DNA from: Lama guanicoe
Lineage: Eukaryota
Assembly: GCA_013239625.1 (NCBI GenBank)
Contig: MU053881.1
Coordinates: 2,728,001-2,792,000 of the forward strand
Length of the DNA: 64,000 bases
Direction: 5' to 3'
The notes beneath the pieces are model-generated. The model was not told where the DNA came from, ran no database searches, and saw nothing but the letters and a program-made list of their open reading frames with translations. This document shows positions 52,031-63,875 of the stretch, piece by piece (positions within the stretch are counted from its first letter, which is position 1; each line of letters begins with the position of its first letter). The translations under genes and the position numbers were made by a program.

Positions 52031-55000
52031 TGTACACCATGACCTCTTTATCCAGTCATCTGTTGATGGACATTTAGGTTATTTCCATGTCTTGGCTATT
52101 GTAAATAGTGCTGCTGTAAACATTGGGGTGCATGTTTCTTTTCAAATTACATTTTTCTCTGGATATATGCCCAGGAGTGAGATTGCTGGATCATATGATA
52201 AGTTTATTTTTAATTTTGTAAGGAATTATACTGTTTTATACTGTCCTCCATAGTGGCTGCACCAATTTACATTCCCACCAACAATGTGGGAGGGTTCCCC
52301 TTTCTCTACAGCCTCTCCAGCATTTGTCATTTGTGGACTTTTGAATGATGGCCATTCTGACTGGTGTGAGGTGATACCTCATAATTGCTGGATCATATGA
52401 TAAGTTTATTTTTAATTTTGTAAGGAATTATACTGTTTTATACTGTCCTCCATAGTGGCTGCACCAATTTACATTCCCACCAACAATGTGGGAGGGTTCC
52501 CCTTTCTCTACATCCTCTCCAGCAATTATTGTTTGTTGACTTTTTGATGATGGCCATTCTGACTGGTGTGAGGTGATACCTCATGGTAGTTTTGATTTGT
52601 ACTTCTCTAACAGTTAGCAATGTTGAGCATCTTTTCATGTGCCTTTTGGCCATCTGGATGTCTTCTTTGGCAAGCTGTCTATTTAGATCTTCTGCCCATT
52701 TTTTGATTGGGTTGCTTGTTTTTTTTTTATATTAAGCTGGATGAGCTGTTTGTATATTTTGGAAATTAGTCCTTTGTCAGTCAAATCATTTGCAAATATT
52801 TTCTCCCATTCTGTAGGTTGTCTTTTCATTTTGTTGATGGCATCCTTAGCTGTGCAAAAGTTTTTAAGTTTAATTAGGTCCCATTTGTTTGTTTTTGCTT
52901 TTATTTGCATTACTCTAGGAGCTGGTTTGAAAAAAATATTTCTGGGATTTATGGCAGAGTGTTATGCCTATGTTTTCATTTAGGAGCTTTATAGTATCTG
53001 GTCTTAAATTTAGGTCTTTAATCCATTTTTGAGTTTATTTTTATATATAGTGTTAGACTGAAATTGTCTTTTAAAGGTAGCTGTCCAGTTTTCCCAGCAC
53101 CACTTATTGAAGAGACTGTCTTTTCTTCATTGTATATTCTTGCCTCCTTTGTCATAGATTAATTGACCATAGTGTAGATTAATTGACCATAGTGTGTCGG
53201 TTTATTCCTGGACTTTATCCTGTTCCATTGACCTCTGTGTCTGTTTTTGTGCCAGTACCATACTTTTTTTTTTTAAATTGGAGTATAATCAGTTACAATG
53301 TGTCAGTTTCTAATGTACACTATAATGTCCCAGTCATGCATATATATACATACATTTGTTTTCATGTTCTTTTTCATTAAATGTTATTACAAGATACTGG
53401 ATGTAGTTCCCTGTACTATACTGAAGAAATTTATCGATTTTTATATATAGTGTTTAACCTTTGCAAATCTCAAACTCCCACATTTATCACTTCCCACCCA
53501 TTTGCCCCAGTAACCATAAAATTGTTTACTATGTCTGCAAGTCTGTTTCTGTCATACAGTTTTGATTACTGTAGCTTTGTAGTATAGTCTGAAGTCAGGG
53601 AGCGTGATTACCCCAGCTCCATTCTCCTCTTTCTTTGTTTTGGCTATTCGGGGTCTTTTGTATTTCCACACAAATTTTAATACTTTTTGTTCCAGCTCTG
53701 TGGAAAACGTCATTGGTAATTTGATAGGGATTGCATTGAATCTGTATATTTCCTTGGGTAGTATGGCCATTTTAACAATATTGATTCCTCCAATCCAAGA
53801 ACATGGTATGTCTTTCAACTTATTTATGTTTTCAATTTCTTTCATCAGTGTCTTATAGTTTTCGGAGTACAGGTCCTTTGCCTCCTTGGGGAGGCTTATT
53901 CTTAAGTATTTTATCTTTTTTGGTATGATGGTAAGTGGGATTGTTTCCTTAATTTCTTTTTCTGCTATTTTGTTGTTAGTACATAGAAATGCAACTGGTT
54001 TTTGTATATTAATTTTGTATCCTACAACTTTACCAAATTCATTGATGAGCTCTAGTAGTTTTCTAGTAGCTTCTTTAGGGTTTTCTATGTACAGTATCAT
54101 GTTATCAGCAAACAGTGACAGTTTTACTTCTTTTTTCCAATTTGGATTCCATTTCTTTCTTTTTTTCCCCCTCTGATTGTTATAGCTAGGGCTTCCTAAA
54201 CCATGTTGAATATAAGTGGCAAGAGTGGGCATCTCTGTCTTGCTCCTGATCTTAGGGGAAATACTTTCAGCTTTTCACCACTGAGTATGATGTTAGCTGT
54301 GGGTCTGTCATATATGGCCTTTATTATTTTGAGGTATGTTCCCTCTGTGCCTACTTTCTGGGGGCTTTAACATAAATGGATGTTGAATTTTATCAAAAGC
54401 TTTTTCTGCATCTGTTGAGATGATCATACGGTTTTTATTCTTCAGTTTGTTAATGTGTGGTATCACATTGATTGATTTGCAGGTTTTGAAAAATCCTGGC
54501 ATCCCTGGCGTAAATCCCACTTGATCATGGTGTGTGAGCCTTTTAATGCATTGTTGGAGTTGATTTGCTAGTATTTTGTTGTGGATTTTAACATCTAGAT
54601 TCATAAGTGATATTGGTTTATAATTTTCTTTTTTTGTGATATATTTGTCTGGTTTTGGTAGCAGGGTGATGGTGGCCTCAAGGAGTGAGTTTGGAAATGT
54701 TCCTTCCTCTGCAATTTTTTGAAATGGTTTCAGAAGGATAGGTGTTAACTCTTCTCTAAATGTTTGGTAGAATTCCTCAGTGAAGCCATCAGGTCCTGGA
54801 CTTTGGTTTACTGGGAGTTTTTAAATTACTGACTCTATTTCAGTACTGGTAATTGGTCTATTCATATTTCCCATTTCTTCCTGATTCAGTCTTGGCAAAT
54901 TGTACCTTTCTAAGAAGGTACATTTCTTCTCCATTGCCTTTTTTGTTGGCATGTAGTTGCTAATAGTAGCTTCTTATGATCCCTTGTATTTCTATGGTGT

Positions 55001-56751
55001 TGGTTCTAACATCTTTTTCATTTTTGATTTTTATTAATTTGGGCCCTCTCCCTTTTTTTCTTGATGAATCTACTAAAGGTTTATCAATTTTGTTTTTATC
55101 TTTTAAGAGAACCAGCTTTTAGCTTCATTGATCTTTCCTATTTTTTTTTAAAGTCTCTCATTTATTTCTGCTTTAATCTTATGATTTCTTCCCTTCTACT
55201 CACTTTGGGTTTTATTTGTTCTTCTTTCTCTAGTTGCTTTAGGTGTAAGTTTAGGTTGTTTATTTGATATCTTTCTTGTTTCCCGAGTTAAGCTTGTATC
55301 ACTATAAACTTCCCTCTTAAAGAACTGCTTTTGCTGCATCCCACAGGTTTTAGATTGTTGTGTTTCATTTTGATTTATATTCTTTGATTTCCTCAAAGAT
55401 CCATTTAGTAGTATATTTTAGCTTAGGAGTATATTGTTTAGCCTCCACATGTTTGCAGTTTTTGTAGTTTTTTCTTGTAGTTGATTTCTAACCTCATAGC
55501 ATTGTGGTTAGAAAAGATGCTTGATATGACTTCAGTTTTCTTATATTCACTGAGGCTTGCTTTGTGGGTCAGCATGTGGTCGATTCTGGAGACTGTGCAC
55601 TTGAGAAGTATGGTTTCTGCTGCTTTCAGATGGAATGCTCTAATAATACTAATTAAGTCCATTTGGTTTAATGTGTCATTTAAGACCTCTATTTCCTTAT
55701 TGATTTTCTGTTTGGATAATCTGTCCATTGATGTAAATGGGGTGTTAATGTCCCCCACTATTATTGTGTTATTGTGAATTTCTCCTTTTATGTCTGCTAA
55801 CAGTTGCCTTATATATTGAGGTGCTCCTATGTCGGGTGCATATATATTTACAATTGTTATATCTTCTTGGATTGATCCCTTGAGGATTATGTAGTGTCAT
55901 TTGTCTCTTGTAACAGTCTTTATTTTAAAATCTATTTTGTCTGATATAAGTACTGTTACTCCAGCTTTCTTTTGGTTTCCGTTTGCATGGAATGTCTTTC
56001 TCTGTCCCCTCACTTTCAGCCTGTATGTGTCTCTAGCTCTGAAGTGGGTTTCTTGTACACAGTATATATATGGGTCTTGTTTTTGTATCCATTCAGCCAG
56101 TCTGTGTCTTTTGGTTGGAGCGTTTAACCCATTTACATTTAATACATTATTGATATGTATGTTCTCATTGCCATTTTGTTAATTGTTTTCGATTTGTTTT
56201 CTGGTCTCTGTTTTCTCTTCTTTTTGTTCTCTTCTATTGCTGTTTAATGATTGTAGAGTTACATTGGTTTGCAGTTATGTCTGAGGTTTTGGTATAGAAG
56301 TCTATATATATATACATAATTGTTTTAAGTTGCTGATCTCTTAATTTCAAATGCATTTTAGATGCCCTGCGTTTGTACCCTTTTCCCCTCACGATTACTT
56401 TTCTTGTTTCTAGTTATGGCCTTTTCTTTTTTTACCTAGAGAATCTCCTTTGACATTTGTTATAAAGCTGGTTTGGTGGTGCTGAATTCTTTTAGCTTTT
56501 GCTCATCTATGAAGCTTTGATTTCTCCATCAAATCTCAACGAGAGCCTTGCTTTGCATCTTACAAAACTGAAGCTCTAGAGTATTCTTGGTTGTAGGTTT
56601 TTCCTTTTTATCAGTCAACCAGGTCAAAGATAATCTTGACTATAAACAGTTTTAGCACCTGATCCTGGATAAGATTCGACTACTTCGTTTCTGTGAGGTA
56701 GCTATTTTTCTGCCTTCATAGATGTGGAATCGGGGAGTGTTTGCCTAGCTT

Positions 56752-57958: not shown

Positions 57959-58313
57959 TAGTTGCCATTTTTATTATGGGAGGTTTCAAATAAAGGTCCT
58001 TATTTTTGGCTTCTCTTAAAAACTGAAAGTTCTAAAAAACAAAACAAAACAAAACAAACCCTGAAAGTTCTGGCTACACTGGACCCCTGTGCCCAGGTGG
58101 GATCAGCTGGCTATGGATGGAGAATGAGCTGCTCTGCTGGCCCAGTTCCTGCCTAGTCGCTGAGGGCATCCATCCCCACGTCCCCACTTACACTATGGCT
58201 TTTGAGGTGAGGAATCTGATCGTCAGGAGCGGGAGGTGACTTGCCCAGCGCAGGGCTAGGCTTTGAACCTCTGCCGGTCCAGCCCTCCTCAAGCGGCCCT
58301 TCTCCCTTCTTAG

Positions 58314-58457
58314 GCGATGGCCCGGGATGAGAAGAATTACTATCAAGATACCCCGAAACAGATTCGGAGTAAGATCAGCGTCTATAAGCGTTTTTACCCA
58401 ACAGAGTGGCAAGCCTTCGTCGATTCTTTGCAAAAGAATAAGATGGAGGTTGAGTGA
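58314..58457 (+). CDS. NOP16: Nucleolar protein 16, exon 5 (total 537 nt = 178 aa)
   Basis: AMARDEKNYYQDTPKQIRSKISVYKRFYPTEWQAFVDSLQKNKMEVE*. Confidence 0.96.
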   Translation, partial: AMARDEKNYYQDTPKQIRSKISVYKRFYPTEWQAFVDSLQKNKMEVE

Positions 58458-58744
58458 CTGGTTTACGTCTGCCCCAGGCTGAGGCCTCCTCCTGGACCAG
58501 AGAAGCTGGAGCCAGGGTCTAAGACAAGAAGGGGCATGCTGCCAGAGACGCGGCTGGCCAGAGCCCTGGAATCAAAAGGTTACACGCACACGCACATGCA
58601 CACGCACACCCACTCTCACACTTCCCTCTCTGGGGAAGACACTGTCTCCCAGAGGCTCCAGTTTAGAGTCTTCTGGGAGCTCCGGGAAAAGTCGGAACCT
58701 GCTGTTTTCAGAGCAGATGATGTGTTTGAATATAGACTGTGTAC

Positions 58745-58750
58745 AATAAA
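58745..58750 (+). terminator. NOP16 polyadenylation signal
   Basis: AATAAA preceded by TGTA and followed by GT/T-rich sequence. Confidence 0.8.
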
Positions 58751-59519
58751 ATACAGTATTTTACTTCCCTGATGGTTTTGTGTTTGCTGTTCCCTGCCAC
58801 GCCCCGGGGCTGCCCCTGCAAAAACCTACTCAACCAGGGCAGAGGGGCCACCAGCCCTTTCTGCTCCACATTCATGGGCTCTCCCAGGCGCAGCCTCCCT
58901 CCTCTTCTGCCCTGTTCTGGTTCTCCTGCTCTCTGCCTTGGTTTCCTGCACACACAGTTCCATTAACGCTGCTACGGAAGCCTGCAGGGAACCCGGGGCT
59001 GCCTGGAAGGGGCCTGCGTGGCCAGTGCTAGCCCTACCCCACTCCTTGACCCTGGTCTCAGGCCAGCTGTGGCTCATGTGCCAGAGGATCAGGAGGTACA
59101 CAGCTGCCTCCTGGTCTGCCTTCTCCCCTGCTTGTCTCTCCTGATGGGAACCTGAGCCCCCAAATCTGCTGAGACTGCTCGGTGGACTGCTGAGTACCAC
59201 TCTGCTGTGTGCCAGGCACTGGGCTGCACACTGCACGGTCATTCCCTGGGGCCAGGCCTGCCCGATTTGGTTGCCAGGACCACAGGCAACATGTGAGGTG
59301 GGCACTTTATATCTTCAGTTATTAATAATACAAAAACCCTCTCGTTCCTAAGGTTTCTCTTTAAATCTGTCTCCCCTCACTGCTCTTGAAAAGGGCTTAA
59401 TGTTCTCACACAGAACGTTTCACATAAAGCCCTGTTAGGTGGTGTGGGTTTATCCTCATCTTACGAGTAAGGAAACAGGATTGAGAGGCGTCAGTGTGGG
59501 GTTGGTCTGATGACGAAGC

Positions 59520-61017
59520 CTAGACTTTCACTTGCCGACCTTCTCTTCGGCCCCTGAAGGCAGCCCATCCATCCCACACCATTAAGGCAGGCTGGAAACT
59601 GGACAGAAACCCCGTCGGACCCAGTGCTGGGCGCCGGCAGTGACTGGCCACCGTGCGCACGGTTAGCGCAGCCTTTAGGATGGCGTCTGCAGCAGACCTC
59701 CCGAGGGCCTTCAGGATTTGGCCTCCTAACTTCTGTCCCTCACAGCATTCCAGATTCAGGCCTTTGACTAGGCTGGGCCCTTCCCTTGTTTTCTCACCCA
59801 GCTCAGGTGCCAACTTGAGGAAGCCTTCCGCTGCCCCAGGCTGTGGGAGTGTCCCGGAGTCCTCATGCCCGACTTCCTGTAGCAACCTCTCTCAGTCCTG
59901 CCCGCTGCTAGTCGGCTTGACAACCCCTACCAGACTGGGCTCGAGTGCCAGGACCTCGTCTGGGAATCCGAGAGCCCAGCGCCCAAGCAGGTGCTTGTGG
60001 GGGTGCTCGCAGGACGGCACGGCCTCCATCCGGACCTCTGGCGTGGAGGCAGGCAGACGTCCTGCTCCCGTTTCCACGGCCAGCCCTGGAACGCCTCCCC
60101 AGGAAGGGTCTGGGTACCTCCCTCAAAGTACTGGGCTGGACCAACGCTGACGTTCTTGCCACCCGACTCCCACAGGGACTGAAGGGACAGGGAACTAGGA
60201 CTTGGTGTTTGGCAACCTGTGTCGCAGTCAGTGTCCCAGCTGCCCGTCACTGGGACTGTGAGCACCCAGCACATGTTCCTCGAGGTCAGAATTCAAAGGA
60301 CACCACATCCAGATTTTTGGCATTTATTGTACACCTCAAACAGCCACCGACACTCCATGTTACGCATCTTGTGGGTCTGGGGTCACAAGGCCTGGGCTGG
60401 GGCAGCCAGGCTGCTTCTTCCAGATCTTTGATGGGACTCTTCCTCTCGTCCCTTAACGGGTGCATCTCCTAGAGGCAGCAGGGGAAGCTGGAGGTTCCCC
60501 TTTCACAGCTACTAGACAGGACTCTGAGGACATGCGAGCAGACGGCCCGGACTGCCCCAGTCTAAGATCTGGGTCAGCTGCGCGAGGACTGACAGCACAG
60601 GTTTTAGCAGCTGGATGAACTGCTGGCGGTAGCTACTGAATGTCCTCCAAAGGCAAGTGGAAACATTTGTTGGAGAATCTGAGTTTTCACTCAGGCAGAC
60701 AGGCTAGTTGTGAGATTTTTCGTCAGCATTTCTCTGCGGAGGGTCGGGAGGCCGTGATGGACCAACTTCACCTCCTCCCCAGTGCTTATAGCTGGATGCC
60801 CCCGCGTCAGCGCAAGCTTCCAACGGGCAGGTCTGGGCACCAGCAGGTGCCACAGGAGGCTTCTTGGGACAGGCAGCCAGTCCATGGTGGTGGTCCCAGC
60901 AGCCTCAGGCGCTCTCTTGCCCAGACGATCCGTATGTCCAAGCTCTGGGCCAAGCTGGCCTCTGCTCAAAGGGATGGCAACAGGTCAGAGAAGAGAAGCT
61001 CAGAAGCCATGGTTTCA
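59520..61017 (-). pseudogene. Candidate decayed tandem-CARD (death-fold) gene
   Basis: Acceptor (pyrimidine tract + CAG at 61020-61018), then ACCATGG (ATG 61010); three CARD-like segments with in-frame stops (60968, 60471, 59894) and frameshifts. By-eye similarity only. Confidence 0.55.
60323..60328 (-). terminator. Possible ARL10 polyadenylation signal
   Basis: AATAAA on the minus strand preceded by TGTA and followed by TGTGGTGTCCTTT; ~3.4 kb downstream of the ARL10 stop. Confidence 0.4.
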
Positions 61018-63701
61018 CTGAAAGAAGTCTTAAAAACAGAAGATCCCAGTGCCAGGGTGAGTGATCCAGGCACGGGTTCAACTGGCAAGAAGCAAAAGCT
61101 TCCTTCTCGTGTGAGGTGGACACTGGGTGGTCAGCGCCCACCCACTCTCGGAGAGTCTTCATTCGAATATGAGAGCTGCCTACTGTTTACTCCCTACTCC
61201 CAGGCTTAGGCGGGTGGGTAGCTGTAGAGGCAGGGCAGTGGGGAGGAACACAGGAATTCCACTTTGAGATGAACAGCTGCACGTAACGACTGGTTCCCAA
61301 AAGCATTTATCTGGGCTCCTGAACCAAAGTCATGTTCAGGAACAAGTAGGGAAGAGGATGACAAGGCCAGGCAGTTTGGTGTTCTTAAGAAAGGCCATTC
61401 CCCCACTTGGCTGCATCTGGTCCTGGTGGAAGCTGGAGCAGATGAGTACTGGTTGGCACCTGGCCTGGAGGATGGGCCAGCAGCTCCACCAGAGGGGCGC
61501 CGCCGTCAGCCACAAACATGGTGAGGCACACCCCCGGGCCAGCAGAGCGTCTGTGCTCTGTCCAAGTACCAGAGAGGTGGCACCCCGTACCTTCAGTGCC
61601 CCTCAGCGGTGTGTGTCTTCTGGTGTGCCACTGGGACCTGCTGGTTCTGGTAGTGGTCTCAAAAAGCCGCTCAAGTAGATATAGTTAAACTCTATACTCA
61701 AGTTCACGTTCCCACAGTGGGGACTTTAAACTCTGTACTGCATAATGATACTCATTAGACCAAAGGCAGATCTTAGTAGAAAAAGGAGTCCCCCCGACAA
61801 TGCTGGCTCCAGACACCACTTTCAAATGCTAGAGGACAAGGCGGAGTTCATAGAACAGAGAAGTAAGGTTTCTCAACCTTCCAAGGACAAAATGAAACGT
61901 CAGCGAAGTTTCAAAGGCTACTCTAAAACCCATGGCATTCCTGAAATATGAAATCACTTCTTAATGCAGAAATTTAATCAGAATTTCAAACAATCGGATT
62001 CTATTCTGAGACACCCACAGCCCAAGAGCTTCCAACGATCGCGCTCACTTCTGGACTCCGGGAGCCTCCTGCCCCGCCTCCCTGCCCTGCCCCTCTGGCA
62101 CGGCCACGGCGTGGAACTGAAGCACTCTGAGTAAATGTCAAATGAAACAAAGGCACATAATCTCTATTCTCAATTAAAAAGCAAACCGAGTTGGGTTTCT
62201 CCCCTAAAAAAAGGTCCATTTGTGGCTGTTGACTATTCAGTGGCCCAATAGACAAAAGGCTCCTTCTTCTGCCTGCACCAAAGAGAAGTGTCAGTACAGA
62301 GACAGTCCTTGCGCTGGCTGATCACTGGGAACAGGAGAATCACAGAAAGTGTACTGGAGAGGACACTAGAAATCCTGTCCAGCTTTGCCTCAGCCAGGGA
62401 GTCAGCAGGTCCAGAAAGGCGGATGGACCACAGGCTACCTAGCAGGTTGGTCTGCTAATTCTCATTACTTTTTATGTGGATGTCCACGATAAAACTGCCT
62501 GAGTCACTTGTTACCTATGCAGGAAGGGTCTGTATCCCTTGGATGTACTGGTGGAGTTTAAGTTCACGTGGATCATCGTGACGTATTATGCTGTCAGTTA
62601 CAGCCACAGAGGGTGGGGGCAGCTGGAGCCCTGTCTCCACTGACGCACGTGGCTTACCACACCGTCATTCATGGTTCCAGTGGTCTTCCTTGAAGCTCCC
62701 GGTTCTCCATGACAGTCATCCGGGGTTTTGATAACAGCACCTAGAAACAGAGCCTAAAACTCTGGCCTGTTCCTTTCATAAATAAATAAATAACTAAAAC
62801 GCAGTTCGGAGGCCACCGCTGACAGTCTTCTTCCCAGGGACACACGCGGCTCCTTCCTTCCCCAGACGTTATGTAAACATGGGCACTGGCACAGTCAGTG
62901 TAAGAGCAGCAGCCTCTGTCTCCAGATTAGGTGCAGGGGGTGGGGTGGGAAGGGGGGTGGGGCTTTCAGTTTTTCCAACGAGGGCGTGAACACCACTTAC
63001 TCCGCAGTCAAGAGAGGCTGGCAGTCCAGGCCTCAACCTTAGGGAGGCAGGGAGGCTTCGGAAAGCTCCTTGCTGGGACCGCGAGGATCATTCTCATGCT
63101 TCCTATGTTCGTGGCTGGGAAGTGCATCTCCAAGTTAGAAAAAACCATACAAATCACCTCCCTTTAAAAAGGGTGGCCCTGGGGCCAGAGGCAGAGATTG
63201 CACAAGGCCACACGAGCCAGCTGGGGCTGGAGGACAGTGCAGGACTTGGGGCGAGAGCTCAGGGCGTGCTGCCCAGAATCTGTCTGCACGAGAGGGGTGT
63301 GAAGCCACCAGGAGGGAACGGTCTAGACTGGGCGTCCTTGGCACACCTACGCTGGTCCTCAACCACCAGGACCCGCATGGTGGGGAGAAAACAGCACACT
63401 GAGCAGCTCACTGAACAGGCCAGAGGAGGAGGCTGCCTTCCCTGGTGAAAGCGGGATCCACACCCGGCCGAGAATGAGCAAGACACTGTCCTCTCCCACA
63501 CTCTGCCTCCCTGTTTCTGCCTCACCAGGAAGGCTTCTGTGTGGTTCCCGGCCCTGCCCAGGTCCTGCTCTCGAGAGGGCAAGGAGGGGAGAAGGGAAGT
63601 GCCGCCACGTGGCCCCTGCCCCAGGCCCCGCTGGGGATGCAGAAGCAGGAGGAGCAGCACTGGGGTCCCCAGGGCTGACCGGCGACCAGGCAGGCGCTGC
63701 C

Positions 63702-63875
63702 CTAGGAGAGAAGCTCCAGGAGCAGTCTCCAGATGTGCACGGTACCAGGGTTCTCGAAGCCAGGTCCTGCAGGGGCGATGCTGGCCGCCAAGAGGAAAAC
63801 TTCCCGTTGGTTATCGACAGCCTGCAGGCCCAGCTCCTGCTGCAGCTCCACCATGCTCATGGCCTCGCTCAGGTC
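63702..63875 (-). CDS. ARL10: ARF-like GTPase 10, last coding exon (upstream exons beyond the window end)
   Basis: CAG acceptor; [57 protein letters not shown]; position matches the known ARL10-NOP16-HIGD2A-CLTB-FAF2 order. Confidence 0.92.

Follow-up and report, generated by a model that had tools for sequence, protein, structure and literature searches.

The 64-kb window, by which the whole stretch of DNA analysed here is meant, is of mammalian origin. Its Pfam matches are to HIG_1_N, clathrin light chain, L1 reverse transcriptase and, weakly, Nop16. Combined with the recognisable translations, they give a gene order that we take to be FAF2, CLTB, HIGD2A, NOP16 and ARL10. The Nop16 match (E = 0.12) sits on the exon preceding the last exon of NOP16, and the name ARL10 for the exon at 63702..63875 is presumed from its translation and its place in the gene order. 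The order FAF2-CLTB-HIGD2A-NOP16-ARL10 is matched in excerpts of the sheep and cattle gene lists (PMC10376747; PMC12075139), and arl10 and nop16 adjoin in an excerpt of the salmon list (PMC8102513). In these excerpts, which hold named genes only, no gene is named between ARL10 and NOP16.

The interval between these two genes contains a candidate remnant of an exon coding for a CARD, a six-helix death-fold adaptor domain in immune signalling that acts via homotypic CARD-CARD binding. The candidate is on the ARL10 strand, 3.05 kb past the ARL10 stop and 1.7 kb from the poly(A) signal of NOP16. Since it is placed between the ARL10 stop and the NOP16 3′ end (~58750), it lies in 3′ UTR or intergenic DNA. 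An earlier note on this DNA had described three modules here, the middle of which it read as a CARD remnant of NLRP1/ASC type. The features discussed below are as follows.

63702..63875, minus strand: last coding exon and stop of ARL10 (translation; stop at 63704-63702)
60634..60885, minus strand: upstream frame opened by an ATG and containing the first module of the earlier note; probably not coding
60632..60650, minus strand: piece 1 of the middle module and the first break; probably a non-coding 5′ edge, possibly an eroded splice acceptor
60533..60631, minus strand: 5′ half of the putative CARD exon remnant, spanning helices 1-2 and the beginning of helix 3 in a single open frame (translation)
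60454..60540, minus strand: 3′ half of the putative CARD exon remnant (helices 4-6), shifted by one frame relative to the 5′ half and interrupted by an in-frame TAG (translation)
60469..60471, minus strand: premature TAG within the 3′ half (sequence)
60412..60453, minus strand: in-frame tail past the terminal motif (translation)
60323..60328, minus strand: AATAAA, 126 nt past the terminal motif (sequence); candidate signal
58317..58750, plus strand: last exon of NOP16, including its poly(A) signal (58745; sequence)

Layout and breaks of the candidate remnant

As the earlier note had described, the middle module runs on the minus strand in three pieces (60650-60636; from 60634 in a second frame; 60540-60454 in a third), and it is interrupted by two frame changes and a TAG at 60471-60469. 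The two frame changes cancel, and piece 3 therefore shares the frame of the upstream stretch 60885-60634. The module has 94 nt from the start of helix 1 to the start of helix 4, whereas the painted-turtle Caiap row, counted by eye, spans 129 nt (43 codons). This leaves it ~12 residues short of the painted-turtle Caiap CARD, which bears out the size of the helix-3 deletion of about 10 residues that had been proposed. With a frame change between the halves near 60541, the TAG at 60471 and these missing residues, six-helix length is not reached in a single open frame, and a CARD reading needs an assumed loss of 12 residues as well as a one-residue gap. The ~200-base remnant makes no CARD today, and no frame yields one.

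Past the terminal motif, the last 7 codons of the in-frame tail, which follow 7 extra codons, may resemble the end of helix 6 in C-terminal CARDs. The AATAAA further on could be a signal of a lost gene or of the ARL10 3′ end.

Base composition over 25 codons of the 5′ half is GC3 0.80 and GC2 0.24. Measured against 365 codons from 8 neighbouring exons, synonymous codon use gives no coding-like signal in either half (P = 0.07 for the 5′ half, P = 0.32 for the 3′ half), and short chance pairs are the only tandem or dispersed repeats found over the module. The stretch is contained in whole or in part in 20 of the 24 sequencing runs listed, and the 5 runs recorded as RNA contain only 0.20-0.30 of its words.

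The opposite strand is also fairly open. A plus-strand frame at 60262-61209, in register with piece 3, has ~315 codons and just three stops, and a 189-codon part of it is matched by a close-relative ORF, P0011. For the opposite-strand frame over the module, one of 36 candidates matched, and that match is confined to DNA 5′ of the module.

Resemblance to CARD columns

Column classes were taken from the 25-species vertebrate Caiap CARD alignment, as excerpted from the supplement of PMC5662874, and the 3′ half was scored on all 28 Caiap columns, misses included. An earlier score of 22.5 bits (next 11.5) was discounted because columns missed by the target had been omitted from it, and it is superseded by the 28-column scoring. 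On the latter, the 3′ half (60537-60457) ranks first of 127,816 frame positions for Caiap helices 4-6, with 15.1 bits against 11.3 for the next position, and matches 13 of the 28 column classes with one gap. It thus has the residue pattern and spacing of CARD helices 4-6. Among 4,198,754 simulated positions, 3 and 8 reached this score under two weightings, a chance expectation of 0.09-0.24 per 64-kb window; Caiap, however, is the sole subfamily scored, and was picked after the fact out of perhaps 30 possible CARD subfamilies.

The helix 4-5 block allows a cleaner comparison, having been left unused in the earlier note and having its register set by the terminal motif. Here 9 of 18 Caiap columns are matched, for an analytic P of about 3e-5 per position, and a score of 9 occurs at 3 of 127,894 window positions, the remnant included. 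The P becomes about 1e-4 over three registers and, by our estimate, ~3e-3 when ~30 CARD subfamilies are allowed for.

The 5′ half is less consistent. It ranks fourth of 127,816 positions on a generic helix 1-2 pattern drawn up with hindsight, once the sequence was known, and scores just 3.3 bits on Caiap-derived columns. When the hindsight pattern is placed 94 nt upstream of the 3′ half, the joint score is 29.7 bits, with the next independent site at 16.5, and none of 12 simulated 400-kb sequences reaches it (maximum 24.7). When Caiap columns are used for the two halves alike, the site remains first in the window with a joint score of 18.3 bits, which is nevertheless reached in 8 of the 12 simulations, at 18 positions. 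The L-x-E-x-H-P motif of the earlier note and a helix-1 pattern each occur at 2 of ~128,000 frame positions; one of each is found here, 157 nt apart and in the right order. Taken together, the motif tests are mixed and lean towards a CARD.

The main competing explanation is chance, in which non-coding DNA of the ARL10 3′ UTR or of the intergenic interval mimics a CARD once three frames are joined at freely picked points. We regard this as the less likely of the two readings. Untuned motif scores of this kind arise by chance 0.1-0.5 times per window; the two frame changes, the stop and the 12-residue gap all act as free parameters; codon usage is neutral; and the excerpted cattle, sheep and salmon lists of named genes show nothing between ARL10 and NOP16. 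Against chance stands the fit of helices 4-5 at a pre-set register, with the P values given above.

Database searches and the flanking DNA

Library searches of the remnant were negative throughout, which speaks for chance resemblance. No CARD came up in Pfam for nine single frames at and near the module, the sole match being CHCH (E = 1.3), located elsewhere. The read-through gave 0 families in all three versions, as did each half alone (E ≤ 10), and the Pfam CARD hit above background by which the earlier note had proposed to check its reading was therefore not obtained. Another 21 flank frames showed no other CARD-gene domain and matched just an L1 piece and a DUF (E = 0.38). No FIIND/UPA or PYD was matched by Pfam in minus-strand frames at 59499-63700, where decay could mask them. 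Among 177,635 PDB sequences the read-through had no match at E ≤ 10, and 0 matches were returned for the downstream relative P0002 and for 60388-60140. A word-seeded search for longer proteins scored none of 10 word-sharing candidates, and Rfam gave a single match (E = 0.38), outside the module. HMMER filters discard matches above about E = 0.1. Because profile and sequence searches discard weak matches in this way, a decayed fragment of 60-70 residues could go undetected.

Wider searches were similarly uninformative. A CARD-motif scan of viral contigs for reference CARDs returned 2 chance matches, and in two scans of metagenomes for exons of ARL10 and NOP16, 0 of 599 and 0 of 595 stretches were confirmed, with no vertebrate contig among them. 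Neither these scans nor the search with the opposite-strand frame yielded an orthologue of 60631-60454 itself. No report tying a CARD gene to the ARL10-NOP16 interval was found in the open-access full-text literature, and ARL10, NOP16 and their neighbours are absent by term look-up from the excerpted text of two papers on inflammasome evolution (PMC11258412; PMC13076529).

The DNA around the remnant is alignable across mammals and carries frame-breaking indels. Just upstream, all three candidate relatives are ORFs, at 95, 49, and 46% identity. The two distant ones, P0009 and P0010, match 60930-60636 only through 3 and 6 frame switches, respectively, which fall at differing places, and this lack of frame constraint next to the module counts in favour of chance. 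An ATG at 60885 in near-perfect Kozak context opens the 84-codon upstream frame (60885-60634, minus strand), which has one TGA; the close-relative ORF P0008 has no stop in its place. As an ancestral start, this ATG was ruled out because it is absent from P0009 and P0010. The frame switches and the missing ATG indicate that the upstream module is old alignable DNA under no frame constraint. Nor does it qualify as a duplicate of the CARD-like module, since a score at least as good is reached by 432 of the 568 DNA tiles and, among peptide tiles, by 401 of 1,684.

All three orthologous upstream ORFs stop at the 5′ edge of the remnant, in a frame other than that of piece 1. Piece 1 is therefore unlikely to be the N-terminus, and its inclusion in the domain by the earlier note was probably mistaken. 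The ends of the upstream ORFs are preceded by residues with mostly pyrimidine-rich codons. From the peptides alone, the edge may represent either a pyrimidine tract with a splice acceptor, part of which this genome has lost, or a helix 1 whose beginning has decayed.

Downstream, a minus-strand frame at 60122-59523 runs for 200 codons with a single stop. A phmmer search with it among 1.84 billion proteins gave 3 matches. One, P0002, is a close-relative ORF that is 87% identical and does not have the stop (six surrounding residues are absent); the other two are rich in repeats and were judged artefacts. No family, structure or distant relative was found for this frame. Atlas searches of the downstream ORF and of P0002 gave no usable match and low recognition, and the single-sequence fold of P0002 (pLDDT 43.5) is uninformative. 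Nearer the remnant, the stretch at 60400-60290 on the minus strand, in two frames, may resemble the NOD2 CARD1-CARD2 linker (~60400-60330) and the start of CARD2; Pfam and PDB searches found nothing there. The scheme of three modules is thus weakened, the upstream one being neither frame-conserved nor a detectable duplicate and the downstream one having no intact relative among the 1.84 billion proteins.

Comparison with known CARD genes and possible origin

The remnant resembles a CARD in helices 4-6 and falls outside the family on profile score, length and open frame. One known CARD gene to compare it with is Caiap (a CARD followed by 16 ankyrin repeats). In the excerpted report on this gene, intact copies extend from cartilaginous fish to marsupials, with none found in placental mammals (PMC5662874). 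The remnant shares with the Caiap CARD the helix 4-6 spacing and the column classes of its 3′ half, in a mammal from the clade reported to have lost the gene. In contrast, its 5′ half fits the Caiap CARD poorly, it is shorter by the helix-3 region, its frame is broken, and neither the Pfam searches nor the protein search with the downstream frame found ankyrin repeats behind it. We accordingly consider it very improbable that this is the copy of Caiap missing from placental mammals, despite the fit of the 3′ half to Caiap helix 4-6 columns and the excerpted report of the loss in that clade (PMC5662874). The 5′ half gains little on Caiap columns, no downstream frame matches an ankyrin repeat, the search with the downstream frame of 200 codons brought up no Caiap among the 1.84 billion proteins, and the room to the NOP16 3′ end is only 1.7 kb.

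The C-terminal CARDs of NLRP1, ASC and CARD8, compared by eye, seem to share with the remnant the hydrophobic spacing of helices 1-2 and the terminal L-x-E-x-H-P. A poly(A) signal behind what may be a last exon is a further likeness. CARD structures of this type are present in the PDB. The remnant, however, has no PDB or Pfam match, no FIIND or PYD was found upstream, and its helices 4-5 are nearer to Caiap. The NLRP1/ASC-type label thus finds no support in these searches. By eye, the helix 4-5 region also seems similar to NOD2 CARD1 and to CARD6. NOD1 and NOD2 nevertheless differ from the locus in gene order, and no NACHT or LRR was found at the locus; in the vertebrates compared in the excerpted source, NOD1 lies between ZNRF2 and GGCT and NOD2 near NKD1-SNX20-CYLD (PMC3791470). 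The remnant does not amount to a complete Caiap, NOD1 or NOD2.

An old retrocopy fragment of a living CARD gene (e.g., PYCARD, CARD8 or CARD6), inserted past ARL10, would account for the single-exon look and the AATAAA downstream. We nonetheless give it hardly any weight, since neither a poly(A) tail nor a target-site repeat is visible, Pfam finds no PYD upstream, and no solved mammalian CARD matches at E ≤ 10, where a copy of placental age might still do so.

Mammalian genomes contain many remnants of decayed genes. Like the unitary pseudogenes left by genes that placental mammals have lost, the locus has a decayed coding-like patch, a fixed syntenic place and nearby DNA that is alignable without frame conservation. 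It differs in that this label requires an intact counterpart, and none has been identified for the remnant.

On balance, 60631-60454 is probably the dead remnant of one CARD-coding exon, which we assign to no subtype or parent gene. The earlier reading of a CARD-type remnant is carried forward by helices 4-5 and by the first rank of the 3′ half, and goes without backing from Pfam and the PDB. The boundaries, with upstream ORFs ending at the 5′ edge and AATAAA following, hint at a single exon. On this account, an exon of a CARD gene would have lain on the ARL10 strand, and the gene would have died early in placental mammals. Later decay would have brought the frame change, the stop and the loss of ~12 codons around helix 3. 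The ancestral protein, judging from what is known of the family, may have taken part in inflammasome or NF-kB signalling by homotypic binding between CARDs. Since no parent gene was found, the remnant points to a gene that may have been lost rather than to a working system; at present it is a dead fragment without function in this animal.

A more specific proposal, offered tentatively and in our view somewhat doubtful, is that an undescribed vertebrate CARD gene, either Caiap-related or a tandem-CARD innate-immune adaptor, lies between ARL10 and NOP16, is intact in marsupials or reptiles, and was lost at the base of the placental mammals, with the remnant as its fossil. If so, a member of the CARD adaptor repertoire would have been lost, and the remnant would mark the spot where, as with Caiap, an uncharacterised inflammasome or NF-kB adaptor may survive intact in non-placental vertebrates.

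Elsewhere in the window, HIGD2A (start 48840, minus strand) and NOP16 (start ~49200, plus strand, approximate) appear to stand head to head within a few hundred bases and likely share a promoter. Short repeats at ~58190-58280 and 59400-59540 are presumably MIR-like. An intron of NOP16 holds a decayed LINE-1 on the minus strand (~53500-56400), of which ORF2 pieces and a fragment of the ORF1 end are left (Pfam RVT_1 and Tnp_22_dsRBD).
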